DNA of 64,000 nucleotides from Candidatus Latescibacterota bacterium (GCA_965248435.1 OZ252100.1:1664001-1728000); one strand, 5' to 3'; positions 17,161 to 33,413 are shown, numbered from the stretch's first letter. The notes: generated from the letters alone by a model not told the origin. A program made the numbers and translations.

Positions 17161-18209
17161 CTAACCTGGAAGTAAACGGACGTAAGATCGGAGTCGGTAA
17201 GAGAGTTTATATAATCGCCGAGATGTCCGCCAACCACAATCAGGACCTAGACAATGCCATCCGGATTCTCAATGCTGCCAAAGAAGCCGGCGCCGACGCA
17301 GTCAAGCTTCAAACTTACACTCCTGACACACTCACGTTGAACTGCCGAAATCACTATTTCCGGATCCGTGATACACTCTGGCACGACCGGTTTCTGTACG
17401 ATCTTTACAGCGAAGCGTGCACACCTTGGGAATGGCAGCCAAAGCTCAAAGAGATCGCTGACGATGTCGGCCTGGACCTGTTCTCTACCCCTTTCGATTC
17501 GTCTGCAGTTGACTTCCTTGAAAGCATCGACGTTCCCGCTTACAAGATTGCGTCATTCGAAAATGTGGATCTCCCTTTACTACGGAAAGTCGCCCGAACT
17601 GGAAAGCCGATCATCGTGTCAACCGGCATGGCGACGCTTGCAGAGGTGGACGAAGCCGTACAGACGCTCAGGAGGGCAGGCTGCCAACAATTGTGCCTCC
17701 TTAAGTGCACGAGCTCCTACCCTGCGGATCCGAAGGAGATCAACCTTCGGACAATCCCCCACCTTTCGGAGGCCTTTCGGGTGCCGGTAGGACTGTCTGA
17801 TCACACGGTAGGGATCGCGGTTCCCGTAGCCGCGGTCTCACTTGGCGCGTGTGTAATTGAGAAGCATTTTACGCTGTCACGGAGTGATGGGGGACCGGAC
17901 AGCGCTTTCTCCTTGGAACCACACGAGTTCGAAGCCCTTGTCAAGGCAGTTCGCGTGGCCGAAGATGCTTTGGGTGAAGTTCGATATGGCGTCACCGAGG
18001 AAGAGAAGAAGAGTCGGGTATTTCGACGGTCGCTCTTTGCCGCAGACTCCATCAAATCCGGAGAGGCTTTTACTGCCGATAACCTCCGATCTGTTAGACC
18101 GGGACACGGCCTCCATCCGCGATTTATGGACGCTATTATAGGACGGCGTGCGAGGCAAGATATTGAATTCGGAACTCCTCTAGATTGGGCAATGGTCTCC
18201 GACGAATGA
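17157..18209 (+). CDS. pseI: Pseudaminic acid synthase
   Basis: IIAEMSANHN, KLQTYTPD, KIASFE, KCTSSYP, SDHT, EKHF, GGPDSAFS, C-terminal SAF domain. Confidence 0.92.
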   Translation: MTNLEVNGRKIGVGKRVYIIAEMSANHNQDLDNAIRILNAAKEAGADAVKLQTYTPDTLTLNCRNHYFRIRDTLWHDRFLYDLYSEACTPWEWQPKLKEIADDVGLDLFSTPFDSSAVDFLESIDVPAYKIASFENVDLPLLRKVARTGKPIIVSTGMATLAEVDEAVQTLRRAGCQQLCLLKCTSSYPADPKEINLRTIPHLSEAFRVPVGLSDHTVGIAVPVAAVSLGACVIEKHFTLSRSDGGPDSAFSLEPHEFEALVKAVRVAEDALGEVRYGVTEEEKKSRVFRRSLFAADSIKSGEAFTADNLRSVRPGHGLHPRFMDAIIGRRARQDIEFGTPLDWAMVSDE

Positions 18210-18251
18210 AGACAAAAACAGGAAATTTCCGAATCTCAAGGAGCAACAACC

Positions 18252-19001
18252 GTGAAAGTTGTATGCACCATTGAGGCAAGGATGACTTCATCGAGGCTTC
18301 CAGGGAAAGTGCTGGCTCCGATCATGGGTCGACCAATGCTCGACCTAATGATCGAGCGACTGCATCGGTCTAGAACTGTCGATGAGATCGTCGTTGCCAC
18401 GACTGTGAATTCGGCCGATCAGCCGATTGCGGATCTGGCTGATGATTTAGGAGTATCCTGCTTTCGAGGAAGCGAGGAGGATGTCCTTGATCGCGTCTTA
18501 GAGGCAGCAAGACAAGCAGGTGCCGACGTCATTGTGGAAACGACCGGCGACTGTCCTCTCATCGACCCAAAAATTGTCGATCGGGTCGTAGAAACCTTGT
18601 TGAGAAATAGTGTCGACTACTGCTCTAATGCAGTTCGAAGAACCTATCCACGAGGAATGGATGTGGAGGTCTTCTGGTTCCACCACCTTGAGGAAATCGC
18701 TCAACTTACGAACGATCCGGTCGACCGAGAGCACGTGTCTACTTTCTTCCATCGATTCCCTGATCGGTATCGCTTGCTGAACGTGACAAGCTCTTTGCCC
18801 TCTCACACTCTCAGCCTTAGGCTAACCGTTGATACACAGGAAGACCTGGATATGGTTTCAAGCATTTTTGAATCTCTCTATATGCGGAATCCAGAGTTCG
18901 AACTAGAGGATATCCTGGATCTGCTTGCTGAAAATCCATCTCTTGCAGGGACAAACCGTCACGTCAAACATAAAACGGTGTTCAGCAAGATCTCTCTTTG
19001 A
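18252..19001 (+). CDS. SpsF-type cytidylyltransferase, copy 2
   Basis: IEARMTSSRLPGK, RGSEEDVL, TGDCP, REHV, RLTVD. Confidence 0.85.
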   Translation: MKVVCTIEARMTSSRLPGKVLAPIMGRPMLDLMIERLHRSRTVDEIVVATTVNSADQPIADLADDLGVSCFRGSEEDVLDRVLEAARQAGADVIVETTGDCPLIDPKIVDRVVETLLRNSVDYCSNAVRRTYPRGMDVEVFWFHHLEEIAQLTNDPVDREHVSTFFHRFPDRYRLLNVTSSLPSHTLSLRLTVDTQEDLDMVSSIFESLYMRNPEFELEDILDLLAENPSLAGTNRHVKHKTVFSKISL

Positions 19002-19041
19002 CCGCGCAATCGGTCTCGTACTAGCTTCGAGGAGGATTGGT

Positions 19042-20256
19042 ATGGAGTATTGCAGTAAGTGTGTGTATCCCTCGAATTCAGCAGTCAACCTGAATTTCGA
19101 CGAAGATGGAGTTTGCTCAGGCTGCTCGTACTTCGAAGAGATAGACAACATCGACTGGAAGGAGCGGGAAAAGACACTTGGTGATCTGCTCCAGAAATAT
19201 CGAAACCCTGAAGCACCTTATGATTGCATTATTCCTGTTAGTGGTGGAAAAGATAGCCATTTTCAAACATATCTCATCAAAGAGGTCTTTGGTCTGAAGC
19301 CGCTCCTCGTGACCTTTAACCATATCTGCAGTCCCTTGATTGGCCTGAAGAATATGGCCAATATTGTAGAGAGATTTGGTGTCGACCACGTACGGTTCAG
19401 CCCGAACCCCGTTCTAATCCGAAAGCTGATGAAATACACCCTTGAGAAGAGAGGAGATGCTTGCTGGTTCTGCCAGGGTGGCGTCGTCACAGTACCTATC
19501 CAGGTAGCTATCCAGTACAAAATTCCCTTGATTATCTGGGGTGAACACGGCTGGTCGCATTTGGCAGGGAAAAACAGCCTGGATGACATGGTCGAGTTCA
19601 GTGTAGAAGAGCGTTCAGAACTTTTCATGCGCGGATTATCCATCGAAAAGGTTCTAAAGGACAACCCAGACTTGGAGCGCCGGGATCTAAGCTGGTTGGA
19701 ATATCCCAGCACTGAGGAAATCGAGAGCGTAGGCGTTCGAGGAATCTATTTGGGCAACTACTATAAGTGGAACCAGAAGGCCCTAACGGAATTCGTAATT
19801 GACAAGTTTGGCTTTACCACAAGACCCAAAGCCAGGACCTACAACACGTATGCCGATGTCGACTGTCAGCTTTGCTCCGGCACAAATGACTACCTCAAGT
19901 ATCTGAAGTTTGGTTACGGTCGTACCACCGACCACGCAAGCCAGGACATCAGAGAAGGTCGAATCACGCGCGAAGAAGGCATTAAGCTTGTGAAAAATTA
20001 CGACCACAGGAAACCTGAAGACTTAGACACCTTTCTAGAAGAATTGGACCTGGACGAGGAGGAGTTTTACAAGATCGTTGATAGGTTCAGAGATCCTGAT
20101 GTTTGGGAACGGAATAACGATGGCGAGTGGGTCCGGAAGCCTTCCGCCGACATCGACCCTATCATCGACTCCTCCGGAGCCGACGAGATCGAAGATCGGA
20201 TGGCCTTTGTCAAGAATTGGACTGAAGACGAGGTCGATGGTCGCTGGTACTTCTAA
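19042..20256 (+). CDS. N-acetyl sugar amidotransferase (WbuX/PseA family), copy 1
   Basis: N-terminal CxxC...CxxC, PP-loop SGGKDS, WGE, KFGYGRTTD; GGAGG RBS before the ATG at 19042. Confidence 0.88.
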   Translation: MEYCSKCVYPSNSAVNLNFDEDGVCSGCSYFEEIDNIDWKEREKTLGDLLQKYRNPEAPYDCIIPVSGGKDSHFQTYLIKEVFGLKPLLVTFNHICSPLIGLKNMANIVERFGVDHVRFSPNPVLIRKLMKYTLEKRGDACWFCQGGVVTVPIQVAIQYKIPLIIWGEHGWSHLAGKNSLDDMVEFSVEERSELFMRGLSIEKVLKDNPDLERRDLSWLEYPSTEEIESVGVRGIYLGNYYKWNQKALTEFVIDKFGFTTRPKARTYNTYADVDCQLCSGTNDYLKYLKFGYGRTTDHASQDIREGRITREEGIKLVKNYDHRKPEDLDTFLEELDLDEEEFYKIVDRFRDPDVWERNNDGEWVRKPSADIDPIIDSSGADEIEDRMAFVKNWTEDEVDGRWYF

Positions 20257-20262
20257 TCTTCT

Positions 20263-21057
20263 ATGGATCAAAAACGCCTTATGGCCCAAGCATCGCGAAA
20301 GATCGTCTCTCAGAGTTTGAGCTCGAAAACGAACACGACTTCGGATTTCAATTACTTAGACCAGCTCGAGGACTATTTCTTCCAAACTGATGGCACTTAC
20401 GCCGAGAAGATTGCAGCGTTCCCAAAATATGTTCCCCGCCAGAGACTGACCGACTTCCTTTCCCTTTACGAAATCTTTAAAAGGGTCCTCTCGGTCCAGG
20501 GTTCGGTGATAGACTGCGGGGTTTACCGCGGCAGATCGTTGATGACCTACGCCCAGCTTAGTGCTATTCTCGAACCCATGAACTATCAGCGACAAATCGT
20601 GGGATTCGACACTTTCAGGGGATTCCTTAGCTTATCGGAAGAGGATAGCTTGGGAACACACGATCAAACAAAAGCTGGTGGCTTCAAGGCGGATTCCTAC
20701 AATGAGCTTCTTGAGTGCATTCGACTATATGACGCGAACCGGTTTCTGAATCACATGCCGAAAGTGATTCTCGTAAAGGGAGACATCGTAGAAACAGCAC
20801 CTGCGTTTCTACAAAAGAACCCACACACCGTCGTAAGTCTCCTTTCTCTGGACCTTAGCCTATACGAGCCAACCAAAGCGGCGTTAAAAGCTTTCCTGCC
20901 TCGAATGCCGAAGGGCGCGGTCATCACTTTCTCGGAAATGAACTGTACAGACTTCAGCGGCGAGGTGCCGGCGGTAATCGAAGAGCTGGGCATCCGCAAC
21001 CTCCGGATCGAGCGGAATCCCTTTGACACCGTAGCTTCATTTGCAGTTCTGGAGTAG
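20263..21057 (+). CDS. TylF/MycF/NovP-like O-methyltransferase family protein
   Basis: DCGVYRG, GFDTFRGF, VKGDI, LDLSLYEPT, MPKG. Confidence 0.7.
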   Translation: MDQKRLMAQASRKIVSQSLSSKTNTTSDFNYLDQLEDYFFQTDGTYAEKIAAFPKYVPRQRLTDFLSLYEIFKRVLSVQGSVIDCGVYRGRSLMTYAQLSAILEPMNYQRQIVGFDTFRGFLSLSEEDSLGTHDQTKAGGFKADSYNELLECIRLYDANRFLNHMPKVILVKGDIVETAPAFLQKNPHTVVSLLSLDLSLYEPTKAALKAFLPRMPKGAVITFSEMNCTDFSGEVPAVIEELGIRNLRIERNPFDTVASFAVLE

Positions 21058-22398
21058 TTGAAAGGTTTTTTGTCTATGCGCGCATTCCACGTTGAAGATC
21101 ACAATGTCCGCACCATGTGGACCCTTGCCGAAGAGCTTGTCCCGATCTATCGGACGCTGGTTTCACCTGGATTTGAGGAATCCCTTGGCCTGGTACAGAA
21201 TCGGCTACCCCTCAACATCAAGCGGTACCCTTCGGGAGGAAAGGTTTTCGACTGGACCATCCCACAGTCCTGGACCGTTCGTGAGGCCTATCTGGCGGAC
21301 ACGCAAGGCCGCAGGATCATCGAATACGCCAATGAACCTCTGTTCGTAGGGCCTTACAGCCAGCCGTTTTCAGGTGTCGTGGAAAAACAGGACCTCATGC
21401 CCCACCTTAACTCCCTATCTCACCTTCCTGATGCGATTCCGCTATGCCCTTCCTACTATGCGAAAGATTGGAAACTTGGGATTCCAGATGCGCTGAAGAA
21501 GCGGCTCAACGAAGACCGCTATAGGGTGCACATAGACTCGAGACTCGAGGACGGGAACCTTTGCATTGGGGAAGCATATCTACCCGGAAGGTCTGAGAAG
21601 GAGATAATCCTGACGACCTATATGTGTCATCCCGTGATGGCGAACGACAATATCTCCGGAGTTGCTGTGGCGTCGGAGCTTTTTCGGATTCTGTCGAGTT
21701 TTCCCGAAAGGAACTTCTCATACCGGCTCATCATCATCCCTGAGACAATCGGATCGATCACATTCCTTTACCACCATCAGCCCGAACTCAAAAACGTCAT
21801 CGGCGGCTACAATCTGACCTGCTGTGGAGATCCGGGAAAAATCCACTTCAAGCAATCCTGGTCCGGCGATTCACTACTCGACCGAGCCGCCCGGAAAGTC
21901 CTGATGGATAGAGAGCAGGATCATCGTATTCTGCCATACTACTTGAGTGGTTCTGACGAGCGGCAATTTAACGCCCCAGGCTTCCGCATTCCCATGCCGA
22001 CCATCATGAGAACGCCGCCTGCTCAGTTCCCGGAGTATCATTCCTCCTTTGACAACCTGAAGTTCATAACCCCGGACGCACTTCGAGACACACTACAGTT
22101 CGTTTTGGACACCCTATTCGTCGTGGATAACAACAGGACATACAAAAACATCTATCGGGCTGAGCCCTTTCTCTCGGATAAAGGAATCTTCACCCAGGTC
22201 CACGTGGGTCCGTACGGAGTCTTTAACAAGGGAAAGGCGGGCGTGGATCCGGGATATCTGAACCAGATTGTCATCCACGAAACAGATGGCCGCCAAGACC
22301 TTCTTTCTATAGCAGAGAAGTGGTCTTGTCCATTTCCAGAACTCCTGCACGCCTCCGAGAAGTTCAAGCGGGTCGATCTTGTCAACCTAGTAGAATAG
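21058..22398 (+). CDS. DUF4910 family protein (M28 peptidase-like with C-terminal winged helix)
   Basis: FDWTIP, CHPVMANDNISG, PETIGSI, GSDERQF, FPEYHSS, DG..DLLSIA. Confidence 0.8.
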   Translation: MKGFLSMRAFHVEDHNVRTMWTLAEELVPIYRTLVSPGFEESLGLVQNRLPLNIKRYPSGGKVFDWTIPQSWTVREAYLADTQGRRIIEYANEPLFVGPYSQPFSGVVEKQDLMPHLNSLSHLPDAIPLCPSYYAKDWKLGIPDALKKRLNEDRYRVHIDSRLEDGNLCIGEAYLPGRSEKEIILTTYMCHPVMANDNISGVAVASELFRILSSFPERNFSYRLIIIPETIGSITFLYHHQPELKNVIGGYNLTCCGDPGKIHFKQSWSGDSLLDRAARKVLMDREQDHRILPYYLSGSDERQFNAPGFRIPMPTIMRTPPAQFPEYHSSFDNLKFITPDALRDTLQFVLDTLFVVDNNRTYKNIYRAEPFLSDKGIFTQVHVGPYGVFNKGKAGVDPGYLNQIVIHETDGRQDLLSIAEKWSCPFPELLHASEKFKRVDLVNLVE

Positions 22399-24713
22399 AC
22401 CTATAATCAATCATCTATAATGTATCCTTTCGATGCCTCCGAAGTAGAGGCGGCCATCGCGGCGCTTCTCGATGAAAATCACGATACTATCGTGATCCAT
22501 TCGAACATCTGCTCATTTGGGTACATTGAGAATCCTCTGAAGACAATAGCTGAATCCGTCTGCAAGGCAGCCTCTCCCGATCGGACTGTGCTTTTACCTA
22601 CCTTTACTCCCTCCTTCTGCCGCACCGGATGGTTCGACAGGGAAGAGACCCCATCCGAAACGGGAGCCCTGAGCGAACATTTCAGGAATCTGCCGAATGC
22701 CGTTCGAACTCCCTGCCCAATCAATTCCTTCGCTGTGTTCGGCCCCGATGCGGGCGCATTTATGGAGTACGAGGCCTCCGCGACATGCTGGGGGCCCGGA
22801 TCGATCTATGAAGAGATCTACAATAAGAACGCACTCATTGTCGGTCTGGGCGAGCCTCTTGCCCTCACTGCTTCCATCTTTCACCACGCCGAGGAACTCG
22901 TCGGTGTTCCCTATCGGTTCTTCAAAACGTTTTCGGGTCACGTCAACGCCGACGAATTGGTCACCAGTGTCTCAAAACGGCTGTATGTAAGGCGACTCGA
23001 CCTACCGGTCGAATACAGCTATCGCGTAGCCACCGATCGCCTTAAAGAGGCTGGGAAACTTTGCCGAGTTCCGCTTGGGACTTCTTTCGTGGAAGCCTTT
23101 TCAGCGAAGGAGGGCGTCGATACTCTGATGGAAATCCTTCACAACGACCCTCTCGCCACACTCACAAACCGGGAAATCTATCTGACTGCCAATGCGCAGC
23201 GCTCCAGCGTTTTTCTAGGAAGCACCAACCTCGAATTGACCGGGAAGACGTTCGCACGAGAATTCGAGCGGTTGACTGGCGAAGACTGCAGATTCGTAAA
23301 AACGGAATTTGGCAGATTTCGACAGGAGATCTTGGACCCAGAAAGTCAGCTTCGAACTGCCAATCCGGACTATGTGGTGTTTCTTGAGCGGGCTGAAGAG
23401 GTCCTTGGGAGCCAGATGGAAGGTTCGTTCAACGGAGATGGAGAACTCAGGGCCGAAATTGAAAGCCGAGTCAAACACTATCTACAAACGATTCGCGAGG
23501 CACGTTCGGCACTGTCAGGAACCTTCTTTGTTGCCAACCTGCAGTTCCTCACGTCCTCACCGTTCGGAAACGCCGATGCCACATTTGCTGCCGGCGACGC
23601 ATCCGTACTAGACATCGCAAATTCGATTTTGCGGGAAGCAGTGCAGGAGCTTGAGGATACATATATCCTCGATTTTTGTCAGGTCGCCAGGCGCTTTGGT
23701 ACAGAAAGAGTCCACCCAGGAAAGTACTGGTACGTCGGCAGAATTCCCTTTTGCAAGGAGTTCACAATCGAGCTCGCCGAAGTCCTTACAGGGATGGCGC
23801 TCGCCGCAGAAGAGAAGACAATACGTCTGATCGTGGTAGACCTCGATCAGACACTCTGGGGCGGAGTGGTAGGCGAGGATGGTGTCGAGGGAATAGCTCT
23901 CGGTGGAGATTTTCCTGGTAATGTCTATTCCGATATTCAGCGCTACCTAAAGGCGCTCACAAAACGCGGCATTGCTCTGGCCGTTTGCAGCAAAAACACT
24001 GAGGAAATTGCTCTCAAGACGATTCGCACTCACCCCGAAATGATCCTCGACGAAAGCGACTTCGTGGAGATGCGGATCAACTGGAAGGATAAAGCCACCA
24101 ACATCCGGTCCATCTCCCAGGCACTATCGCTGCGGCCGGCCTCGGTGATGTTTATCGATGACAACCCGATCGAGCGAGAGTGGGTCCGTAGGAACATTTC
24201 TGAATGCACCGTCCCGGAACTGCCCAAGGATCCTGCTGAATGGGTCGGATTTCTCTCCAAATTACCTTGTCTACAGACCGTCCGGATAACATCCGAAGAC
24301 CTCGGACGGACGAAGCAGTACGTGGGTCGGAAGAAGGCGAAGGACTTTGAAATGACGTGTGAGTCCATCGATGAATTCCTCTCGGAACTCAAAATGTGCG
24401 TCTACCTGGAGAAACTCAACGAGTTCAACGTCTCCCGAGTATGTCAACTGTTGACCAAGACCAACCAGTTCAACACGACCACCAAGCGTTATCGCAAATC
24501 TAACCTACGCTTGCTCATCGAGTCGCAGGATGCGGAGGTTTTCGCTGTTGGCCTGGAGGACGGGTTTACAGAGCGTGAAATCATAGGAGTTTTCATCCTG
24601 GTACCAACCGAAGAGACCCTGTTGATCGATTCGTTCTTGCTCAGCTGTCGCGTTTTGGGAAGAAATGTGGAGTCCGCTCTGCTCGGTTGGATTTCCACCC
24701 ACGCAATCAACAA

Positions 24714-25768
24714 GCTGGATTCAATGACTAAGTGCAACACTTGGACTTGAAGACTTCAGCTGGTGTTTTGAAGTTAAGACATTTTCTTGGTCGGTTGTTG
24801 ATCCGGTTCTGAATTTTCTTTAACTCGTGTTTGCTGACCTTTGAGAAGTCTGTCTTCTTGGGGAGGTATCTGCGGACCAGACCGATAGCGTTTTCCACAG
24901 CGCCTCGCTCCCAGCTGTGGAACGGTTTGCAGAAATAGGATTTGGTGCCAAGCACCTCGTTGACCCGTTGATGTTGGCCGTTTTCGGATCCGTTGTCATA
25001 TGTGATGCTCTTCCTCATGTGGGGAGGATGTCGCCCAAGGCGTCGATTAATCGCTTCGGCGACCTCCGAGGGTCCGTTCTTTGCCAGCTTAGCCAGGTGT
25101 AGGTATCTCGACGATCGCTCAAGACAAGCGCCAACGGCCTGTTTGCTCTCACGAGAGATGATGGTGTCGGATTCCCAGTGGCCAGGTTGTTTCCGTTTTT
25201 CGATGTAACGGGGACGTCGATCGATCGAAATACGGCCTGGAATGTGGCTTTCCCGGTGTTTTCGGGTATGCCACCGCGGCTTTCGTTTTTTGTGAGCTCG
25301 GGATAAGCAAGCAACCAGATCCCGCTGCTTGTGCACCTTTGGATCGTAGATATACTGGTAGATGGCTTCGTGGCTGATACCCGCGCTCGGACGCTCCTCG
25401 GGAAGCCTCCCAGCGATCAACTCGGGAGACCATCCTTGCTTGAGTTTGGTCTCGACATATCGCCGGATAACCGGATTCTTCAGCCGTTTCCGCTTGCCGG
25501 CCTCCCGCTTACGTTTCTCAGCCCTTCTGTGAGCCTGGAGGCCCGAGTAACTCTCAGCTATCGGGGACGGATTACGTTTCAACTCTCTTGAAATCGTGCT
25601 GGCGCTCCGGTCAAGGGCCTTGGCAATATCTCTAAGGCTTGCACCAGTGGCTCGACAAAGCGCAATCTGCTCGCGTTCGTCTATCGTAAGATGCTTGTAA
25701 TTGTTTCCCATACACTTAGGATAGGACAGTTGCTACCCTAAGTGTTGCACTTCCTTATTGAACTCGGG
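24714..25768 (-). mobile_element. IS30-family insertion sequence, copy 1 (1055 bp)
   Basis: Imperfect terminal IRs CCCGAGTTCAATAAGGAAGTGCAACACTT / GCTGGATTCAATGACTAAGTGCAACACTT; CAA target duplication at 24711-24713 and 25769-25771. Confidence 0.95.
24728..25711 (-). CDS. IS30-family transposase
   Basis: HTH (STISRELKRN), WSPE, GHWESD, DNGSE, WERGAVEN, NNRPRKCL. Confidence 0.95.
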   Translation of the reverse strand: MGNNYKHLTIDEREQIALCRATGASLRDIAKALDRSASTISRELKRNPSPIAESYSGLQAHRRAEKRKREAGKRKRLKNPVIRRYVETKLKQGWSPELIAGRLPEERPSAGISHEAIYQYIYDPKVHKQRDLVACLSRAHKKRKPRWHTRKHRESHIPGRISIDRRPRYIEKRKQPGHWESDTIISRESKQAVGACLERSSRYLHLAKLAKNGPSEVAEAINRRLGRHPPHMRKSITYDNGSENGQHQRVNEVLGTKSYFCKPFHSWERGAVENAIGLVRRYLPKKTDFSKVSKHELKKIQNRINNRPRKCLNFKTPAEVFKSKCCT

Positions 25769-25956
25769 CAAGGGATTTCGACAACTTGTCGGATTGTTCG
25801 AGGCCACCCCGAGAAACGAACCGGTCGCCTCGCTCTATTCTCGACACGGATTCAGGCCGGTGACTGATCGCGAGTTCCGTCTCGACCTTGACAGCGTCCG
25901 CGTTGAGATTCCTGATTACTTCACGGTTTCCGAAAGCGGAGTGGATGAGGACCACG

Positions 25957-26433
25957 ATGAATCTGAAAAAGAGCGCAGAAGTTTCCACGTATACACTTGA
26001 TGAACTCACCGAGGGAATGTCGGCGCACTACACTGTGATGCTGGGCGGGCGGGAAGTGGGTCAGTTTGCCGGCACCTCTGGGGACTTGAGTCCCCTCCAC
26101 GTGGATGAGGAGTTTGGCAAGAATTCAGAATTCGGCTCTAATCTGGTCCACGGCATGTTGATCGCTTCACACTTCTCTACGCTCATCGGCGTCCATCTAC
26201 CAGGCCGAAATGCCCTACTTGCTGGAATAGATTTCGCCTTCGAGAAGCCCGTTCCCGTTGGCTCTGAAGTAACGGTTTCAGCCTCCATACTGGCGGTGCA
26301 GAAAGCCAACAGGATGGTTAAGCTGAACCTTTTGGCTTACTGGAATCGAGAGATTTGCGTTAGGGGTACGGCCAGCGTAAAGATCCAAAACGATCTGTCT
26401 AATCGCCCAGCGCAATCGGAGTCTTCCACATGA
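25957..26433 (+). CDS. MaoC-family (R)-specific hydratase/dehydratase
   Basis: SGDLSPLHVD hydratase motif, VHGML, FEKPV. Confidence 0.85.
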   Translation: MNLKKSAEVSTYTLDELTEGMSAHYTVMLGGREVGQFAGTSGDLSPLHVDEEFGKNSEFGSNLVHGMLIASHFSTLIGVHLPGRNALLAGIDFAFEKPVPVGSEVTVSASILAVQKANRMVKLNLLAYWNREICVRGTASVKIQNDLSNRPAQSESST

Positions 26434-27548
26434 CTCAAACAACAATCCACGACCCGTCAAAGCCTGGTGTCGCACTTGTGTCGGGTGGAACCGGCAGCCT
26501 TGGACAGGAAGTCGTGCGTGCACTGGCTGCGGCGGGATGGACTGTAGCATTTCAGTACAATAGGTCCGAAAAAACAGCCCGGAATTTGACGGAGGAAGTG
26601 CACAGGGCCCGTGGAACCGCCCATCCATTCCAGTTCGCCTTCGAATCAGGTTTGAGATCCCCAGAGGCCTTTATAAAGGAGATCTCCGATCAACTAGGAT
26701 TCATCCGCGCGTTTATCCACTGCTGCACACCCGTGTTCAGGCTATCGGATTATCGATCCAACTGGATGGATGTATTCAATGATATGGTGTCCCTCAACCT
26801 CGAAATGTTCCTAGGAATGGCCAATGCCTGCTTGCCACCGATGATGTTTCGGCAAGACGGAACCGTGGTTACAATTTTGTCCGATGCAGTAAGGCCTGAC
26901 AGGATCCCGCAGTTTTCCGCTTACGCTGCGGCAAAATTGGCGCAAGCCTCCCTTGTCAAAGATTTGTCTGAATCCGTCGAGGGTGCCGGAGTTCGGGTCG
27001 CCGGTTTGCTGCCAGGCGCGTTCGTCCAAGATCAAGGCAAGGAGAAGAATGAATTACCAGGCCCTGTAATCAATGCAATACGATCCCGCTGGCCAGTCGG
27101 CCTACCCCCGGTCAGATTGGCGCACGTCATCGAGAAAGCGATTCGACCCGATTCAGATCTTCAAAACGGACAGTTCCTTTCCATCGACGCGATGGGTGGG
27201 AAACTTGATGTGACACTCAGCGGATTCTTTGCTGGAGAGGCAAAGGATCCATCGCCATCCGTATCCCCAGAGCAAGCCCATGCCCTGGCCCCAGATACAG
27301 AATCCAATGATGCGTTGCGTTCGGATCTCAAGGAAGTCTTTCAAGAGGCCCTGGAACTCAACGGGAAAGAGGATCTGGAGGATGTCAGACTCGGCATAGG
27401 AGCGTGGGATTCCCTTCAGCATCTGGATCTCTTGATGTCGATCGAACACAAACTGAACGTAGATTTTGGAGACATATCGGGAGATTCGTTGACCAGCTTC
27501 CTGGACATCCTGGCGGCGGTTCGTCGCCTCAAAGCAGAGAGTCGATGA
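26430..27548 (+). CDS. SDR/FabG-like ketoreductase fused to a C-terminal acyl carrier protein
   Basis: GGTGSLG and YAAAK, then a Pro/Ser linker, then WDSLQHLDLLMSIE phosphopantetheine motif. Confidence 0.8.
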   Translation: MTQTTIHDPSKPGVALVSGGTGSLGQEVVRALAAAGWTVAFQYNRSEKTARNLTEEVHRARGTAHPFQFAFESGLRSPEAFIKEISDQLGFIRAFIHCCTPVFRLSDYRSNWMDVFNDMVSLNLEMFLGMANACLPPMMFRQDGTVVTILSDAVRPDRIPQFSAYAAAKLAQASLVKDLSESVEGAGVRVAGLLPGAFVQDQGKEKNELPGPVINAIRSRWPVGLPPVRLAHVIEKAIRPDSDLQNGQFLSIDAMGGKLDVTLSGFFAGEAKDPSPSVSPEQAHALAPDTESNDALRSDLKEVFQEALELNGKEDLEDVRLGIGAWDSLQHLDLLMSIEHKLNVDFGDISGDSLTSFLDILAAVRRLKAESR

Positions 27549-28774
27549 CCATGATCTCCGATAACACCGAGGGTCACTTTGATTCGCTCGCGTTCGAGCG
27601 GTTTCCTTTCATCACTGGGATGCGAACGGACCCGGAGCCGCTGAAGGGAATTCCCTCATTTCTTCCATTCCACCTCAACTACGAACCGCGTGGGGGTTTT
27701 GCGGCCCAAAAGGCAGGTCCCGGTGTGCGCGCGGCCCTTCTGATGGCTTACAAGACAGGATCCATGTTGTCGACGCCCCTCGGCGAAGGGAGTTTAAACG
27801 ACGCGCTCTCTCGTGAAATCCTAGCGCTCATTGCCGAAGCCTGTGGCGGGATCGGTGGGCGCAGGTTCTTTGAGCCGGGCTGTGGGAGAGGGGCGTTGCT
27901 CAAATCACTTCTGGACGAGGGTGCTTCTGCGGCTGACGGCTGCGAGCCAGGCCTTCAGGCGAAGGAGATCACGCAGCGAGAAAGTATGCGTGTCCAGCGG
28001 GAGTTCTTCGGAGAATCCGTCTACAAATCGGATTACGACTGTATATTTCACTATGGCGTGCTTGAGCACGTGGAAGAGCCGGCGGATTTCCTCTACGCGA
28101 ACGCACAGCTTCTAAAGACCGGTGGAACGGTCTTTGTGGCCGTCCCAGGATGCGAGCTGGACTTCGCACTGGGGAATTTCATGGTATTGGCTCACGAACA
28201 CTTGTCATATTTCACTGAATATTCCCTTCGTAGGATGATGTCGGCCGTCGGACTGCAGAACATCAGAACATGCACACTTTCATACAGTCACGGCATACTA
28301 TGTGCGTGGGGAGTACACGGGGATGATCCACGCCCTTCTCGGATCCTTACTTCCATGAACCACGAAGATTCCAGCCTCTTCCAAACATTCGTTCAGAAAA
28401 GCAAGACCCTTCTTGAAAAGCTTCAGAGTCGAGCAAACGCGCTTGCCGCCCGGGGCAAAACACTTGGCCTCTACGGCGTACCTCGCGCTCTACCGGGTCT
28501 ATTGGAGACCGGTGTTCCGCCAAGAATCTTCGACGGTGACTCTGCTAAACACGGAGCCTACTTCAGTGGCTCGCCAAACCCAGTAGAACCGCCCGATGAG
28601 TTGATACAGAACCCTGTCGATGAGCTCTGGATCCTGCCGATCCATCACGATCGAGCAATCCGCGACTACCTGGACGATGAGATTCTCCCCAATGCCAAAA
28701 TAAGTGTATTGTCCGTAATGGACTTCGCCAAAATGATCCGAGATAATCGACTTCCGGAGAGCACCTATGTCTGA
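27545..28774 (+). CDS. Class I SAM-dependent methyltransferase (sugar C/O-methyltransferase-like)
   Basis: EPGCGRG, VLEHV, HEHLSYF; ATGA overlap with the upstream stop. Confidence 0.75.
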   Translation: MTMISDNTEGHFDSLAFERFPFITGMRTDPEPLKGIPSFLPFHLNYEPRGGFAAQKAGPGVRAALLMAYKTGSMLSTPLGEGSLNDALSREILALIAEACGGIGGRRFFEPGCGRGALLKSLLDEGASAADGCEPGLQAKEITQRESMRVQREFFGESVYKSDYDCIFHYGVLEHVEEPADFLYANAQLLKTGGTVFVAVPGCELDFALGNFMVLAHEHLSYFTEYSLRRMMSAVGLQNIRTCTLSYSHGILCAWGVHGDDPRPSRILTSMNHEDSSLFQTFVQKSKTLLEKLQSRANALAARGKTLGLYGVPRALPGLLETGVPPRIFDGDSAKHGAYFSGSPNPVEPPDELIQNPVDELWILPIHHDRAIRDYLDDEILPNAKISVLSVMDFAKMIRDNRLPESTYV

Positions 28775-29870
28775 CTACGGAAAACCTCTGTATGTGGATA
28801 GGCTGAATTACTGCAAGCGCTGCTGCCTTCCTGAGACGGTCGAGGGCATCAAGTTCGATGAGATGGGCTTCTGTCAGGCCTGCCAGTCCTCCGAGCACAA
28901 GATGCACATGGACTGGACTGAAAGGGAGAAAGCTTTGCGGGAAATTCTGGAGTTCCACAAATCGCGGAGCGGAACCAACTACGATTGCATTGTCCCCGTT
29001 AGTGGCGGAAAGGACAGCGCTTTCCAACTTCACGTAATCGTTAAGGTCTACGGAATGAAACCGCTGGCCGTCACCCACAACCAGGGCCACGGGTGGCAGT
29101 CGGAAATCGGTAAGTTCAATCTCGAAAACATCCTCACAAAACTCAATGTCGATCACATTATGTTTACTCCTAGCTCGGACCTGGTTCGAAGAATCTCGCG
29201 AAGATCACTGGACACGATCGGCGATGCATGCTGGCATTGTCACGCAGGGATCGGAGCCTTCCCCTTACAGATCGCGGTCAAGTTCAACATCCCACTCATC
29301 ATCTGGGGGGAATCGGTCGCCGAGACGTCAGGGCGGGCGACCCATCTCGATCCGATCAAGTTCGACAGAGACTATTTGATGCGAGAGTCAATCAAGGTTG
29401 TGCCCAAGAAGATGGCTTGCGCGGACCTGTCTGAACGCGACCTGTCGCCCTACAACCTTCCATCGGCTGAAGAACTGGAAAGGGTCGGCGTCACTGGAAT
29501 CTATCTGGGCAATTACATCTTTTGGGACGAGGAGAGGCAGATGGAATTCCTGCAGGCCGAGTACGGCTGGCGGGACGGCTACGTCGAGGGCGCCTACAAA
29601 AGGTACAAGAGTGTGGAATGCCGGATGGCGGGCATCCACGACTATACGAAATTTCTGAAGCGCGGCTTCGGTCGCGGCACTGACCAGGCGAGTCTAGATG
29701 TGAGGAATGGACTTCTGACACAGGAAGAAGGTTTCGAGCTGGCCAAGAAGGTCGACGCAGAAAAACCTGGGATGCTTAAAGAATATCTGAAGATCGTGGA
29801 TCTCGAAGAGAGAGAGCTAGAGCACATCATCAAGAGCCAGAGAACCGGTAAAGCGAAACTCCTGCCTTGA
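28767..29870 (+). CDS. N-acetyl sugar amidotransferase (WbuX/PseA family), copy 2
   Basis: CKRC...CQAC, SGGKDS, CWHC, WGE, KRGFGRGTD. Confidence 0.88.
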   Translation: MSDYGKPLYVDRLNYCKRCCLPETVEGIKFDEMGFCQACQSSEHKMHMDWTEREKALREILEFHKSRSGTNYDCIVPVSGGKDSAFQLHVIVKVYGMKPLAVTHNQGHGWQSEIGKFNLENILTKLNVDHIMFTPSSDLVRRISRRSLDTIGDACWHCHAGIGAFPLQIAVKFNIPLIIWGESVAETSGRATHLDPIKFDRDYLMRESIKVVPKKMACADLSERDLSPYNLPSAEELERVGVTGIYLGNYIFWDEERQMEFLQAEYGWRDGYVEGAYKRYKSVECRMAGIHDYTKFLKRGFGRGTDQASLDVRNGLLTQEEGFELAKKVDAEKPGMLKEYLKIVDLEERELEHIIKSQRTGKAKLLP

Positions 29871-29879
29871 GATATCCGA

Positions 29880-31241
29880 ATGTCTGAACCCTGCCTCCAA
29901 TCGGCAAAGGATCTGATCGACCAGGTCTGTTCCCACAGGATGAGCGTTCGAGAAGTGGTCGAATCCCATCTTGATCGGATATCGCTGCTTGACGAGTCTG
30001 TCGAGGCCTGGGCGTGGTTGGATACGAACAGAGCCCTGGTCAACGCCGATAGAATTGACAGAGAAATCGCTGACGGATCCTTTCGAGGTGACCTCTTCGG
30101 AGTTCCTGTTGGGATCAAAGATATCTTCAATACTGAGGATATGCCGACCGGGATGGGAAGTCCCATTTGGGAGGGATTTACTGCTGGTAACGATGCCAGA
30201 GTGGTGTTCTACCTTCGGCGTCAAGGAGGCATCTTTCCTGGAAAGACGGTAACGGCAGAGTTTGCCGTTCAAGCCCCCGGAAAGACGAGGAATCCACATA
30301 ATTCTGAATATTCACCGGGCACCTCGTCGAGCGGCTCTGCCGCAGCCGTAGCAAGCTGCATGGTCCCGTTGGCTATCGGCACCCAGACCGCCGGATCTAT
30401 CTGCCGTCCCGCCAGCTATTGTGGCGTCTATGGATTCAAGCCTTCCTTCGGTCTGGTTCCGCGAACCGGTGTCCTGAAGACAACCGACACAATGGATACC
30501 GTCGGGGGCTTCGCTAGAACGCCCGAGGACCTTCGCATCCTGTTTGATGTCATTCGGGTGCACGGGGCAAACTTCCCCATCGGCTTCGAGGCCTTATCCG
30601 ATCCATCACGCCAGGAAAGAGGAGATCGTCCGTGGCGGATTGCCGTCGATTCACACTTGAATGAGCGTTTCAGCCTTCCTTACGCTTACGAAGCCCTCCT
30701 ATTGCTGCTGGACGAAATCGAAGGCCACCCGGAAGTCGAACTCTACGAAAGGCCTCTGCCGGAGCTGTTCAATCATGCCCACGAAATCCATACAACCATC
30801 TACGAAAAGTGCCTCTCCTACTACTTCAAGAAGGAGTTTGGCGACACAGAATTCATAAGCCCCATTATCCACGAGATGATCGATCGCGGAAGCTGCGTGT
30901 CCGTGGAAGACTATGAACGGGCGCTGTCACGTCAGATCGAAATGTCGCGAATGCTGGACGAGTATTTCTCAGACATCGACGCGATTCTCACGCTTACGAC
31001 TCAGGGCATCGCTCCAAAGTACTCGGAGCCGGACCTCCCTGATACCTGTTTGACGTGGACGCTGTGCGGTGCGCCGGTCGCAAGCATTCCGATCTTTCGG
31101 GGCCCCGACTCCATGCCATTTGGCCTTCAAGCCGTCGGCAGGAAGTATAACGACTACCTGCTGCTCAAGTTCGCTGAGTTTGCATCCACAATCAGGCCTG
31201 CGCTGGAGCCAATCATTGCGAACACGACGGCGGCTGCATAA
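29880..31241 (+). CDS. Amidase-signature family enzyme (GatA-like)
   Basis: VGIKD, PGTSSSGSAAAVA, GTQTAGSICRPAS (Lys-cisSer-Ser triad). Confidence 0.88.
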   Translation: MSEPCLQSAKDLIDQVCSHRMSVREVVESHLDRISLLDESVEAWAWLDTNRALVNADRIDREIADGSFRGDLFGVPVGIKDIFNTEDMPTGMGSPIWEGFTAGNDARVVFYLRRQGGIFPGKTVTAEFAVQAPGKTRNPHNSEYSPGTSSSGSAAAVASCMVPLAIGTQTAGSICRPASYCGVYGFKPSFGLVPRTGVLKTTDTMDTVGGFARTPEDLRILFDVIRVHGANFPIGFEALSDPSRQERGDRPWRIAVDSHLNERFSLPYAYEALLLLLDEIEGHPEVELYERPLPELFNHAHEIHTTIYEKCLSYYFKKEFGDTEFISPIIHEMIDRGSCVSVEDYERALSRQIEMSRMLDEYFSDIDAILTLTTQGIAPKYSEPDLPDTCLTWTLCGAPVASIPIFRGPDSMPFGLQAVGRKYNDYLLLKFAEFASTIRPALEPIIANTTAAA

Positions 31242-31262: not shown

Positions 31263-31814
31263 ATGGATTTAAAGTTCCTGGAGACCCAACGTCTGATTCT
31301 ACGGGGCCTTTGTTCTACCGATGCAAATCAGGAGTACCTTGCCTGGTTGAACGACCCCGACGTCCTGAGGTTCCGTGGGCCAAAGGCCTATCCAAGTGAC
31401 ATCGATGGACTCAAAGCATACATCGAGGGTATATCAGGCCGCGGCGATCTGGTGCTTGCCATCTGTCTCAAGAGCGGCGGAAGACACATCGGGAATATCG
31501 CTCTGAATACGATTCAGTGGATTCACCGATCGGCAGAATTGTCTATGATGATCGGTGCGAAAGATGTATGGGGTCAGGGTTATGCAAAGGAGGCGATTCA
31601 CGCAGTGTGTGGTCACGCGATCTTGTCAATGGGACTGTGTCGGGTTTGGGCGGAATCACCGAATCCAGCGTTCAATCGAGCCGTTGAATCCCTAGGCTGG
31701 AAGCACGAAGGAACGAAGCGAGACGCCTTCCTTCTGGACGGCAAGCTTATCAATATCAAGTGCTACAGTATCCTGAAGCGGGAGTTTGCTCCTCGGCCTG
31801 AGTTCGCTCCATGA
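31263..31814 (+). CDS. GNAT N-acyltransferase (RimJ/RimL type)
   Basis: ETQRLILR, WLNDP, HIGNI, WGQGYA, EG..R. Confidence 0.85.
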   Translation: MDLKFLETQRLILRGLCSTDANQEYLAWLNDPDVLRFRGPKAYPSDIDGLKAYIEGISGRGDLVLAICLKSGGRHIGNIALNTIQWIHRSAELSMMIGAKDVWGQGYAKEAIHAVCGHAILSMGLCRVWAESPNPAFNRAVESLGWKHEGTKRDAFLLDGKLINIKCYSILKREFAPRPEFAP

Positions 31815-33385
31815 TTACGACCACGATCGATGGCGGCTGTTTCGCTGGTCACGATACAGAAACGGGATTCACCTACCCGGTAGATGCCCTGCTGAGGGAC
31901 TTCGACCGCATTGGAATTTCCAGCGGGCTAGTCTCATCTTATCGAAGCATTTATTACGACATTTGGGAGGGGAATCGCGAAGCTGCGCGATGGGCGGACA
32001 AGGCCGGAGGTCGACTGCTCCCGCTAGGTGTCGTTAATCCCTGCCAATACGGTCATCCTCCTGAAAAGATCCTTGCCTGGCTGAAGCAAGAATTGAAATG
32101 CCCAGCGGTATCGGTACTGAATATTGCGCGAGAGTCCGCTATAGACTGGGAGTCTCCCGCCGTTCGCGCCATAGGGGAAGCTGCAGAGCGACTGAAGATC
32201 CCCCTGCAGGCTGGAATCCAATCTGAGCGTGAGCTTGCTGGCGTGGAGCGTTCCTGGGGAAGCCTTAATATTCCGGTCTTGATCCGCTGGATGGCGGGAC
32301 ACAGGTACAAGTCGATCGCTTCTGAGTTGGCCGTTGCACACTCGTGCGCGAATTTCCTTTTCGATGTTGGCAATCTGAGTTCAAATGGATCCCTAGAGTT
32401 CATGGCCGATCAGATCGGGACGAACCGACTTTTCTGGGCTTCAAACGCCCCACACAATATACCGGACTGCCCGGCTGCCATGCTTAAGGAAGCAGACCTC
32501 GCGGCCTCGCAGCGGATGGAGATCGGATGCGGGACGTTGTCGACTGCACTTGGCCTCGATTCGCTCACTCCCTCGCTCGCTTGTCGCGAAGACGTAGCCA
32601 GCTGGGAGCGAATCCTGAACACGCCAAAAGTTGACATCCACTGGCACCCAGACCACTGGAACCTGGGCGAGCCGCATCTGGCAGACGAGGACCAGATCGC
32701 AACCTTCGATCGATATGCATATCAAAAGGTGATCCTTTTCTCCATCCTCGGACTCACATATGATTTCCAGGCTGGAAACAGGCAAAGCGAAACCTGGTTT
32801 GAAAAGGACCCTCGCGTATTCGGGCTCGTTGTCGTCAACCCAAAGCATCCGCGAGAGAGCATACAAGAGATCTATCGGCGTTCAAAGCATCCCCGATTCG
32901 TGGGTATCAAGACGATCCAAGACGTCTTCGGCCTGACCCTTGACGACCCGGAATATGGCCCGATTCTGGATGCGGCTGCCGATGTGAACCTCCCTATTCT
33001 GGCCCATCTCCCTGGTTTGGGTCGGTCTGCTCAGCGTTATCCAGAAGTAACATTCGTGGCCGCCCATTCGAACTGGGGCCGAGCGCAGAATCTGATTCCA
33101 TTAAAGAATGTTTGTTTCGATTTTTCGACAGGACACGCGCTACGCCACGAGAGCCAGCTACGGCGTTTTATTGATTCCGTCGGTCCACGCCGTGTACTTT
33201 TCGGTTCCGACGGGCAAGTCGTTGCCCCTCAATGGTCTCTAGCGAAGTTGAAATCTGCGAATCTTCCTCCTGAAGAGGAGTCTTTGATCCTCCGGGAGAA
33301 TGCCTACCGCATCTTTCCGAAACTTCGGGCAATCGGAAGATCCAAATCTGCCTGTCTGCATCCTGGGCTGTTATCCTCTAGCTAG
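31811..33385 (+). CDS. Tandem-domain amidohydrolase-2 family protein
   Basis: Two similar TIM-barrel halves; the C-terminal half has VDIHWH, LAH, AAH, LFGSD, ENA. Confidence 0.7.
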   Translation: MITTTIDGGCFAGHDTETGFTYPVDALLRDFDRIGISSGLVSSYRSIYYDIWEGNREAARWADKAGGRLLPLGVVNPCQYGHPPEKILAWLKQELKCPAVSVLNIARESAIDWESPAVRAIGEAAERLKIPLQAGIQSERELAGVERSWGSLNIPVLIRWMAGHRYKSIASELAVAHSCANFLFDVGNLSSNGSLEFMADQIGTNRLFWASNAPHNIPDCPAAMLKEADLAASQRMEIGCGTLSTALGLDSLTPSLACREDVASWERILNTPKVDIHWHPDHWNLGEPHLADEDQIATFDRYAYQKVILFSILGLTYDFQAGNRQSETWFEKDPRVFGLVVVNPKHPRESIQEIYRRSKHPRFVGIKTIQDVFGLTLDDPEYGPILDAAADVNLPILAHLPGLGRSAQRYPEVTFVAAHSNWGRAQNLIPLKNVCFDFSTGHALRHESQLRRFIDSVGPRRVLFGSDGQVVAPQWSLAKLKSANLPPEEESLILRENAYRIFPKLRAIGRSKSACLHPGLLSSS

Positions 33386-33413
33386 TTCTCTTACCTAGTC
33401 CTGGCCTACTATC

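Follow-up and report, generated by a model that had tools for sequence, protein, structure and literature searches.

Nonulosonic acids of the pseudaminic (Pse) and legionaminic (Leg) type decorate bacterial flagella, capsules and S-layers, where their N-acyl groups shape antigenicity and recognition by phages or the immune system. Campylobacter jejuni NCTC 11168 makes CMP-7-acetamido-5-(2,3-di-O-methylglyceroyl)amino-Pse, for which Cj1295 is required; the proposal is that this protein cuts off the acetamido group at N5 (PMC3068675). The capsule of Psychrobacter marincola KMM 277T contains Pse7Ac with a 5-N-(R)-2-hydroxypropanoyl group, reported as the first lactyl-decorated Pse (PMC7281560), and Tannerella forsythia carries Pse5Am7Gra, in which the glyceroyl group is at N7 (PMC5378307). 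The enzymes that install such non-acetyl groups on Pse and Leg are largely unknown, and their genetic basis in T. forsythia has been called 'a major challenge' (PMC5378307). These papers, and those below, are cited for the passages that concern the glycans and genes in question. Here we analyse a gene cassette in a 64,000-nt stretch of DNA from a Candidatus Latescibacterota bacterium (GCA_965248435.1 OZ252100.1:1664001-1728000; the whole stretch is termed the window), centred on a gene that fuses an AAC(3)-like N-acyltransferase domain (AAC3) to FkbH. We think it fairly probable that this is a ketosynthase-free, carrier-protein-dependent cassette which would swap the N5-acetyl group of nucleotide-activated Pse for a three-carbon hydroxy-acyl group, a pathway logic favoured by comparative evidence, namely independent fusions and co-occurrence in nonulosonic-acid loci.

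Parts of this logic are familiar from polyketide biosynthesis. The mechanism of glyceryl loading onto an acyl carrier protein (ACP) by an FkbH-type enzyme is known from OzmB, and loading modules in which FkbH is combined with a dehydratase (DH) and a ketoreductase (KR) make lactyl starters, as in the bryostatin (BryA) and FR901464-type pathways. The C. jejuni locus presumably also holds acpP2, acpP3, fabH2 and a methyltransferase gene. FkbH-like enzymes of polyketide pathways take the glyceryl group from 1,3-bisphosphoglycerate (PMC7489565), and cj1302 of C. jejuni is labelled as an fkbH-domain gene (PMC7099621).

The fusion protein and the genes of its cassette

In the isolate the fusion gene is split by an insertion sequence (IS) of the IS30 family, and its 5' piece appears as an open reading frame (ORF) of 776 aa (22420-24750) which reads on into the element. 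Excision of the IS together with one flanking repeat (1058 nt) restores the frame as 764 + 1 + 75 = 840 codons, which end in a stop codon at 25998-26000, in agreement with the 840-aa AAC(3)-like and FkbH fusion that an earlier note on this DNA had described. When the split halves are aligned with ten intact fusions (alignment A1) they abut, with exactly one residue missing at the join.

The N-terminal domain matches the Antibiotic_NAT/AAC(3) family PF02522 at residues 26-240, above the cut-off (90.1 versus 25 bits). Its predicted structure (AlphaFold, pLDDT 95.3) returned FrbF, AAC(3) or YokD structures as all of the top ten Foldseek matches, the best being FrbF (3sma), AAC(3)-IVa and AAC(3)-Xa with TM scores of 0.74-0.78. 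Residues H27, R96, S103, H155, E158 and K169 are invariant across 30 aligned sequences, and the H-H-A-E motif (H155/E158) aligns with its counterpart in AAC(3)-Xa. None of the NCBIfam resistance models is reached, NF033082 scoring 48.4 versus 270 bits and all the subtype models lying far below their cut-offs. Sequence and model together place the domain in the AAC(3)/FrbF fold, as a predicted member outside the aminoglycoside-resistance families. In the FkbH part, the FkbH_N region spans residues 293-445, and the core exceeds the curated cut-offs of TIGR01686 (240 versus 146.65 bits) and TIGR01681 (72.6 versus 35.75 bits) and matches structure 3slr (1.5e-39). HAD motif I is present as V-D-L-D-Q-T-L-W (DxDxT type) and the S-C-R motif of the C-terminal transferase domain as L-S-C-R-V-L-G-R; the DLDxT and S-C-R columns are conserved in alignments A1, A2 and A4, being invariant in A2 and nearly so in A4. 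We take the role of the conserved cysteine of this C-terminal domain to be that known from OzmB.

The genes that follow are those the earlier note had named (Table 1). The MaoC-type dehydratase holds a G-D-x-S-P-L-H motif. The next protein has at its N-terminus a short-chain dehydrogenase/reductase (SDR) with an S151/Y165/K169 triad and a glycine-rich motif, which scores below the cut-off of the polyketide synthase (PKS) ketoreductase family PF08659 (17.4 versus 22.6 bits) and is a classical SDR; its C-terminal tail, weighed further below, carries the W326-D327-S328-L329 motif of an ACP, with the S328 codon at 27411-27413. The last gene encodes a class I S-adenosylmethionine (SAM) methyltransferase, here called MT409. 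ATGA overlaps, read directly from the DNA, join MaoC to SDR-ACP (26430-33) and SDR-ACP to the methyltransferase (27545-48), which bears out the translational coupling claimed earlier for the latter pair.

Two upstream genes were missing from that first description. The cassette is larger than first drawn and includes a DUF4910 protein, of the family of C. jejuni Cj1295, and a CalS11-like O-methyltransferase, which together suggest that the N5 acetyl group is exchanged. The former, in addition to its main profile, matches PF09940 (77.6 bits) and PF04389 (29.4 bits), with HTH_47 at 22.3 bits under a cut-off of 27.1; it matches PDB 3K9T (1.3e-89) and sits 2.8 kb downstream of PseI. The latter matches the solved CalS11, a TDP-rhamnose 3'-O-methyltransferase (9.1e-38), and such a TylF-like methyltransferase adjoins DUF4910 in five other loci (L001, L002, L006, L091 and L123). 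Both methyltransferases of the cassette appear to be related to nucleotide-sugar methyltransferases, the C-terminal domain of MT409 being predicted to be of the nucleotide-sugar C-methyltransferase type.

Profiles of ketosynthases (PF00109) and FabH-type enzymes (PF08541) match the genome only far outside the window and find nothing inside it, so that the absence of a ketosynthase reported in the earlier note stands. This bears on whether the genes might instead make a small secreted tetronate or polyketide-like metabolite that has nothing to do with the glycan locus. Pathways to polyketide precursors typically feature FkbH, ACP, dehydratase, reductase and methyltransferase (PMC7489565). However, the window lacks a ketosynthase or FabH-like enzyme, the cassette sits among nonulosonic-acid genes and DUF4910 and is found in their company elsewhere, and an N-acyltransferase fold of the amino-sugar type is fused in, all of which makes such a metabolite hardly credible.

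Fusions and co-occurrence in other genomes

The comparative evidence comes from 160 FkbH-centred loci (80 from species genomes and 80 from metagenomes), whose ORFs were searched with the window proteins (phmmer, E <= 1e-3). AAC3 was found in 21 of them. DUF4910 is present in 14 of these 21 loci versus 2 of the 139 without AAC3 (Fisher 2.8e-13), and MaoC in 15 of 21 versus 28 of 139, although kinship among the loci, which include the near-duplicates L098/L105, L092/L095 and L123/L124, inflates these co-occurrence tests. The hosts of the AAC3 loci are diverse and comprise Alphaproteobacteria, Riflebacteria, Streptomyces, Planctomycetota, Bradyrhizobium, Roseateles, Woesearchaeota and Staskawiczbacteria. 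Pairing of DUF4910 with a formyltransferase-like protein was considered separately and fails for this subtype, being seen in 1 of the 16 DUF4910 loci.

The AAC3-FkbH fusion itself recurs widely. A word-indexed search yielded 13 clusters of such fusions, the closest at 51% identity, and a HMMER profile built from eight fusions, run against 1.84 billion representatives, found at least 70 full-length fusions among its best 150 matches (full length being a match that starts by profile position 50 and ends at or beyond 795 in a protein of at least 786 aa). The domains are also joined in other ways. AAC3, FkbH and ACP occur in one protein in L004, where the PP-binding match reaches 31.5 bits, and in L002 with a weaker ACP match; MaoC lies between AAC3 and FkbH in protein P0151; and AAC3 is fused to an MT409-type methyltransferase in P0211 and P0212. 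MaoC and SDR are fused in L001, L003, L006, L024, L035, L055, L098/L105, L113, L120 and L123, with the ACP added in L001, L006, L113 and L120. The SDR-ACP arrangement of the window recurs in the metagenome loci L092, L093 and L095 and in P0199; a word-indexed search for it gave at least one non-self match, a figure which says nothing on rarity, since generic SDRs took up the 8000 candidates. MT409 has 21 non-self homologues, and contigs of 66303, 9869 and 630507 nt appear both among those of three homologues and among those of three AAC3-FkbH fusions, which suggests that these three share contigs with the fusions.

Gene order varies around a common set. The closest relative, L091 (52% identity), keeps the order of the window, the 443-aa upstream gene, TylF-like methyltransferase and DUF4910 protein preceding an intact AAC3-FkbH of 818 aa and MaoC. 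In L001 the order is AAC3-FkbH, MaoC-SDR-ACP, TylF and DUF4910, and in L006 it is the same with the last two swapped, while L002 has AAC3-FkbH-ACP, DUF4910 and TylF. AAC3 and FkbH are separate proteins in L024 (AAC3, FkbH, ACP, then MaoC-SDR), L033 (FkbH, ACP, MaoC, AAC3) and L054 (FkbH, AAC3, MT409, DUF4910). In L092 and L095 the order is AAC3-FkbH, MaoC, a B12-radical SAM protein, SDR-ACP and DUF4910. The inserted gene of these marine metagenome loci (9846-12059 in L092) encodes a B12-binding radical SAM enzyme of 737 aa, whose position suggests that the acyl group may be C-methylated while on the carrier.

Closer to home, none of 40 relatives carries the fusion, and the only FkbH among them is in G005 (38% identity), so that the cassette is not a lineage trait among the relatives searched. 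All 21 genomes of the same family (G001-G021) contain several ORFs of about 250-890 aa that match AAC(3)-domain residues of about 8-170 or 8-250 with E values of 1e-8 to 1e-18; only one of these genomes has FkbH.

FkbH also has other partners. A GNAT-FkbH fusion, with the GNAT preceding FkbH where AAC3 would otherwise stand, was found in all five of the tested proteins of 738-760 aa (P0104, P0115, P0116, P0130 and P0140), and about 18 more listed FkbH proteins of like size and offset are candidates for it. FkbH is therefore repeatedly fused to N-acyltransferases of unrelated folds. Other fusions are a weak hexapeptide-repeat-FkbH match (P0126) and a GT2-containing protein of 1308 aa (P0118).

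These partners bear on a different account of the AAC(3)-fold domain, in which it would be an ordinary acyl-CoA-dependent N-acetyltransferase, re-acetylating the amine for instance, and the ACP-bound acyl group would be delivered by the GNAT encoded at 31263-31814 or by the GNAT-like C-terminal domain of FkbH. By their structure titles, all solved structural relatives of the domain are CoA-dependent enzymes; the GNAT-FkbH fusions indicate that other transferases can partner FkbH, and the GNAT gene of the window (PF13302, 75.4 bits) lies 2.5 kb downstream. Moreover, the C. jejuni sugar was made with Cj1296/7 out of frame (PMC3068675, Table 1). However, AAC3 forms one protein with FkbH in no fewer than 70 clusters (50% identity) and is joined as well to FkbH-ACP, to MaoC-FkbH and to a cassette methyltransferase, which would be unexpected of an unrelated acetyltransferase. 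We regard a CoA-dependent role as decidedly unlikely.

A proposed acyl exchange and its alternatives

The route that we propose would begin with FkbH, which from its family and motifs is expected to dephosphorylate 1,3-bisphosphoglycerate and to load glyceryl on Ser328 of the SDR-fused ACP. MaoC would then remove the 3-hydroxyl of glyceryl-ACP to give the enol of pyruvoyl-ACP, from which the SDR would form lactyl-ACP; by analogy with the FkbH-DH-KR lactate modules, the two enzymes probably turn glyceryl into lactyl. On the sugar side, the N5 acetyl group derives from UDP-GlcNAc and is unavoidable during synthesis. The DUF4910 metallo-amidase would strip it, as Hitchen et al. hypothesised for Cj1295 (PMC3068675). 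The FkbH-fused AAC(3)/FrbF-fold domain, as the fusions suggest, would move the acyl group from ACP to the freed amine, and the CalS11-like and Methyltransf_14-type methyltransferases would O-methylate, probably on the nucleotide sugar. The expected product class would be Pse7Ac (or 7Am) with an N5-lactyl, O-methyl-lactyl or (O-methyl)glyceroyl group. The core of this scheme, an acyl-ACP built on site and passed by the AAC(3) domain to an ulosonate amine, was already in the earlier note and is favoured by the fusions and co-occurrence, whereas the cassette drawn there was too small.

The acyl group delivered might be glyceroyl or (di-)O-methylglyceroyl, as in C. jejuni, in place of lactyl, with MaoC and SDR serving another purpose or another acyl chain. 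The two methyltransferases of the cassette match two O-methyl groups, cassettes without MaoC and SDR exist (L002, L005 and L054), and the sole genetically tied product is di-O-methylglyceroyl-Pse (PMC3068675). Set against this, MaoC and SDR are translationally coupled to ACP in the window and elsewhere fused to it (L001, L006, L113 and L120), MaoC is once found within AAC3-FkbH (P0151), and N5-(R)-lactyl-Pse occurs in nature (PMC7281560). On balance a glyceroyl product seems rather unlikely.

The acceptor has to be considered in the light of the surrounding genes. The upstream set (12740-19001) encodes PseB-, PseC- and PseF-like proteins, a PseG-PseH fusion, PseI and a second cytidylyltransferase, and a full Leg-type set lies downstream, with a second NeuB (38539), a NeuC-like protein, a PglD-like acetyltransferase, a CBS-nucleotidyltransferase, dehydratases and aminotransferases. 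The acyl group might go to N7 via the UDP-4-amino intermediate, to Leg or to another amino sugar; the glyceroyl group of T. forsythia sits at N7 (PMC5378307), and L001 and L055 have NeuB homologues that do not clearly resemble PseI. Yet PseI directly precedes the cassette, L006 and L035 hold PseI (55-58% identity) together with PseG/PseH, and N7 acetylation is catered for, since PseH is present as a fusion to PseG. In addition, the DUF4910 linkage fits the removal of a pre-existing acetyl group, which only N5 carries, and both known products of matching chemistry are N5-substituted Pse (PMC3068675, PMC7281560). An acceptor other than N5 of Pse is, in our estimation, unlikely.

Several points count against the exchange at N5 of Pse as a whole. 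To our knowledge, the AAC(3) enzymes characterised so far use acyl-CoA and not acyl-ACP. The cassette lies between Pse and Leg gene sets, so that N5 of Pse is a putative acceptor. A lactyl group has a single hydroxyl, and two methyltransferases alongside MaoC and SDR do not fit a simple lactyl product, which means that one methyltransferase may act on the sugar or that the acyl group may stay glyceroyl. DUF4910 is missing from 7 of the 21 AAC3 loci, three of these being contigs of 3-4.3 kb. A search of openly accessible papers found no enzymology for the cassette genes. In C. jejuni, the frame of Cj1296/7 ('N-acetyltransferase') is broken in both of the flagellin variants, of which one makes the dimethylglyceroyl sugar (PMC3068675, Table 1), and a 2026 study found the gene 'consistently OFF' (PMC13130089). 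C. jejuni may therefore do without the AAC(3)-type protein, or the protein may work there as two pieces.

The carrier protein, the last point of this kind, was only partly borne out as the earlier note had it: the SDR assignment stands, whereas the tail on its own scores 13 versus 20.8 bits against the PP-binding family PF00550. Its positional homologues pass that family, with 25-30 bits for ORFs of 76-97 aa in L024, L033 and L055, in addition to the C-terminus of the L004 protein, and a profile of nine of them with invariant W-D-S (A3) matches solved ACPs at 2.5e-10. The genome encodes one AcpS-type phosphopantetheinyl transferase. Prediction of a complex between the AAC(3) and ACP domains gave a score of 0.01 and no usable model, which weighs neither way.

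A wider proposal is advanced tentatively, as one that we would put just short of even. The AAC(3)/FrbF-fold domain of the cassette could be the first carrier-protein-dependent member of its fold, forming with FkbH, and sometimes with ACP, a single 'load-and-transfer' enzyme which together with DUF4910 would carry out an N5 acyl swap on CMP-pseudaminic acid. MaoC/SDR, the SAM-methyltransferase and the B12-radical-SAM enzyme would then form a tailoring toolkit for lactyl, glyceroyl, O-methyl and perhaps C-methyl variants.

The isolate, its island and described systems

The IS30-family element that splits the fusion gene carries a transposase gene whose product scores 279.5 versus a cut-off of 80 bits against NF033563. 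It is bracketed by a 3-bp target duplication, 'caa' (24711-13 and 25769-71), and an inverted second copy with the repeat 'taa' lies at 39736-40790; the boundaries were set by comparing both window copies and reading both pairs of ends. It has 36 matches throughout the 5.67-Mb genome. Some 32 of these span its full length, and the majority are 100% identical. In the isolate's runs the word depth of the element is about 1200 versus about 38 in its flanks; a burst of the element has taken place in this genome.

Contigs from public sequencing runs were mapped onto 23600-26800 in search of an empty site. A contig of 9631 nt from a seawater metagenome (X6) bridges 24710 to 25769 and omits exactly 1058 nt, with 8 and 10 mismatches to the window across flanks of about 1.1 and 1.0 kb. 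In a second metagenome (X7) a contig starts from 25769, and its loose end is the sequence immediately upstream of the IS. In the X1 runs, where all sampled words are present, contigs run into the IS from either side and none bridges the site. An uninterrupted AAC3-FkbH allele thus exists in marine populations, so that the break, a recent one, is specific to the isolate.

The isolate has other lesions. A gene for a UDP-GlcNAc 2-epimerase (NeuC/LegG-like) is interrupted by the second IS30 copy, which leaves its N-terminal part upstream of 39735 and the remainder at 40838-41821. The PseC-like aminotransferase gene (13711-14897) is broken across two frames near 14530-14545, the halves matching residues 26-280 (frame one) and 274-402 (frame two) of an intact homologue; a frameshift or an error in sequencing accounts for the split. 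Neither nonulosonate pathway seems to be functional in the isolate, and because of the IS30 insertions in the AAC3-FkbH and NeuC-like genes and the pseC-like frameshift it is probably without the product. The stand-alone line proposed in the earlier note is dead in the isolate, where the IS inactivates the key gene; the intact allele occurs in seawater populations.

Table 1. Features of the cassette and its immediate neighbours (positions within the window)
Feature	Position	Strand	Remarks
443-aa WbuX-like paralogue	18925-20256	+	no Pfam family; conserved upstream neighbour of the cassette
TylF/CalS11-like O-methyltransferase	20263-21057	+	PF05711, 31 bits
DUF4910/DUF2172/M28-like protein with C-terminal winged helix, Cj1295-like; putative N5 deacetylase	21058-22398	+	PF16254, 276.7 bits
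AAC(3)-FkbH fusion gene, IS-split	22420-26000	+	840 codons once the IS is removed
AAC(3)/FrbF-fold N-acyltransferase domain, aa 1-260	22420-23199	+	PF02522
FkbH part: FkbH_N, HAD-IIIC core, start of C-terminal transferase domain	23200-24713	+	TIGR01686, TIGR01681
IS30-family element, 1055 bp	24714-25768	-	transposase 24728-25711; NF033563
Last 75 codons and stop of the AAC3-FkbH gene	25772-26000	+	aligns with C-termini of intact fusions
MaoC-type (R)-hydratase/dehydratase, 158 aa from ATG at 25957	25957-26433	+	PF01575, 57 bits
SDR ketoreductase fused to a putative ACP, 372 aa	26430-27548	+	PF00106, 86.1 bits (SDR part)
Class I SAM methyltransferase with Methyltransf_14-type C-terminal domain (MT409), 409 aa	27545-28774	+	PF13489, 58.5 bits; PF08484, 23.9 bits
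WbuX-family N-acetyl sugar amidotransferase, outside the core	28767-29870	+	TIGR03573, 345.9 versus 203.2 bits; 8-nt overlap with the methyltransferase

The genes around the cassette offer further candidates for sugar modification. The upstream 443-aa ORF is matched by one ORF in L001 (8e-63) and by one in L091 (2e-207), each of which also matches the WbuX protein of the window. The WbuX amidotransferase could turn an acetamido into an acetamidino group. A GatA-like amidase (PF01425, 244 bits) follows it directly (region 28767-31241) and might be the ammonia source when the acetamidino group is made, a task that usually falls to a HisH/HisF-like pair. Further downstream (31263-35200) come genes for the GNAT, an Amidohydro_2 protein of 524 aa and a formyltransferase-like protein, followed by an ORF of 356 aa with no assignment; these may add to the N-acyl tailoring capacity of the island. 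Three large ORFs with no or faint Pfam matches, at 36491-38371 (626 aa), 48539-50428 (629 aa) and 57530-59494 (654 aa), are candidate transferases using nonulosonic acids.

If the load-and-transfer reading is true, a large part of the N-acyl variety seen in bacterial sugars of the sialic-acid-like type, so far unexplained, could be understood. The fusion network names a full set of enzymes (loader, carrier, dehydratase, reductase, deacetylase, transferase and methyltransferases), and its single-polypeptide forms should be easy to assay; confirmation of this set would extend the AAC(3) fold to a carrier-protein-dependent activity and provide tools for making modified nonulosonic acids. The genes are tied to two known glycan structures. 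What the window adds is the fusion network, a statistical association between AAC3 and DUF4910, a connection with N5-lactyl-Pse and a documented IS30 knock-out with an intact marine allele.

Among described systems, the closest is that of C. jejuni, and the cassette is a widespread uncharacterised counterpart of its Cj1295/Cj1296-7/cj1302 region, the C. jejuni proteins having been compared by family and description only. For this reason, and because the predicted product classes are already known as glycans, the cassette is not the new biosynthetic system that the earlier note had taken it for. Both regions combine a DUF4910-type aminopeptidase-like protein, encoded beside the Pse genes, with an 'N-acetyltransferase' and an fkbH-domain protein, and the predicted product likewise bears O-methyl groups and a three-carbon acyl group at N5 (PMC3068675, PMC7099621). 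In contrast to C. jejuni, AAC3 and FkbH form one polypeptide in the window, the putative ACP is fused to an SDR, and there is a MaoC dehydratase and no FabH-like gene. Genetic evidence in the C. jejuni region concerns Cj1295 only, and the passages considered of two 2026 papers assign no role to Cj1296-Cj1310. The glycans of P. marincola and T. forsythia are likewise three-carbon hydroxy-acyl amides on Pse, although T. forsythia differs in carrying its group at N7; neither structure is linked to a gene cluster in the passages cited here (PMC7281560, PMC5378307).

The resemblance to polyketide and resistance enzymes is one of parts. With the FkbH loaders, such as FK520 FkbH, OzmB and the tetronate proteins Mad7/Mad14, the cassette shares membership of the FkbH family, and it has a putative dedicated ACP. 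Like the FkbH-DH-KR lactate modules it has a dehydratase, a ketoreductase and a methyltransferase predicted to act on a C3 unit. However, its dehydratase is a MaoC hot-dog protein and not a PKS DH, a classical SDR takes the place of the KR, the context of a ketosynthase or acyltransferase-PKS is missing, and the acyl group is proposed to end on a sugar amine instead of in a chain. The cassette may work like a PKS lactate-starter module but is not a member of that class. With AAC(3) and FrbF, the N-terminal domain has in common the fold, the PF02522 family and the H-H-A-E motif, from which it departs in its fusion to FkbH and in a proposed acyl-ACP donor in place of acetyl-CoA. FrbF, which we take to acetylate a CMP-linked amine, would parallel the CMP-nonulosonate acceptor proposed for the AAC3-FkbH protein.

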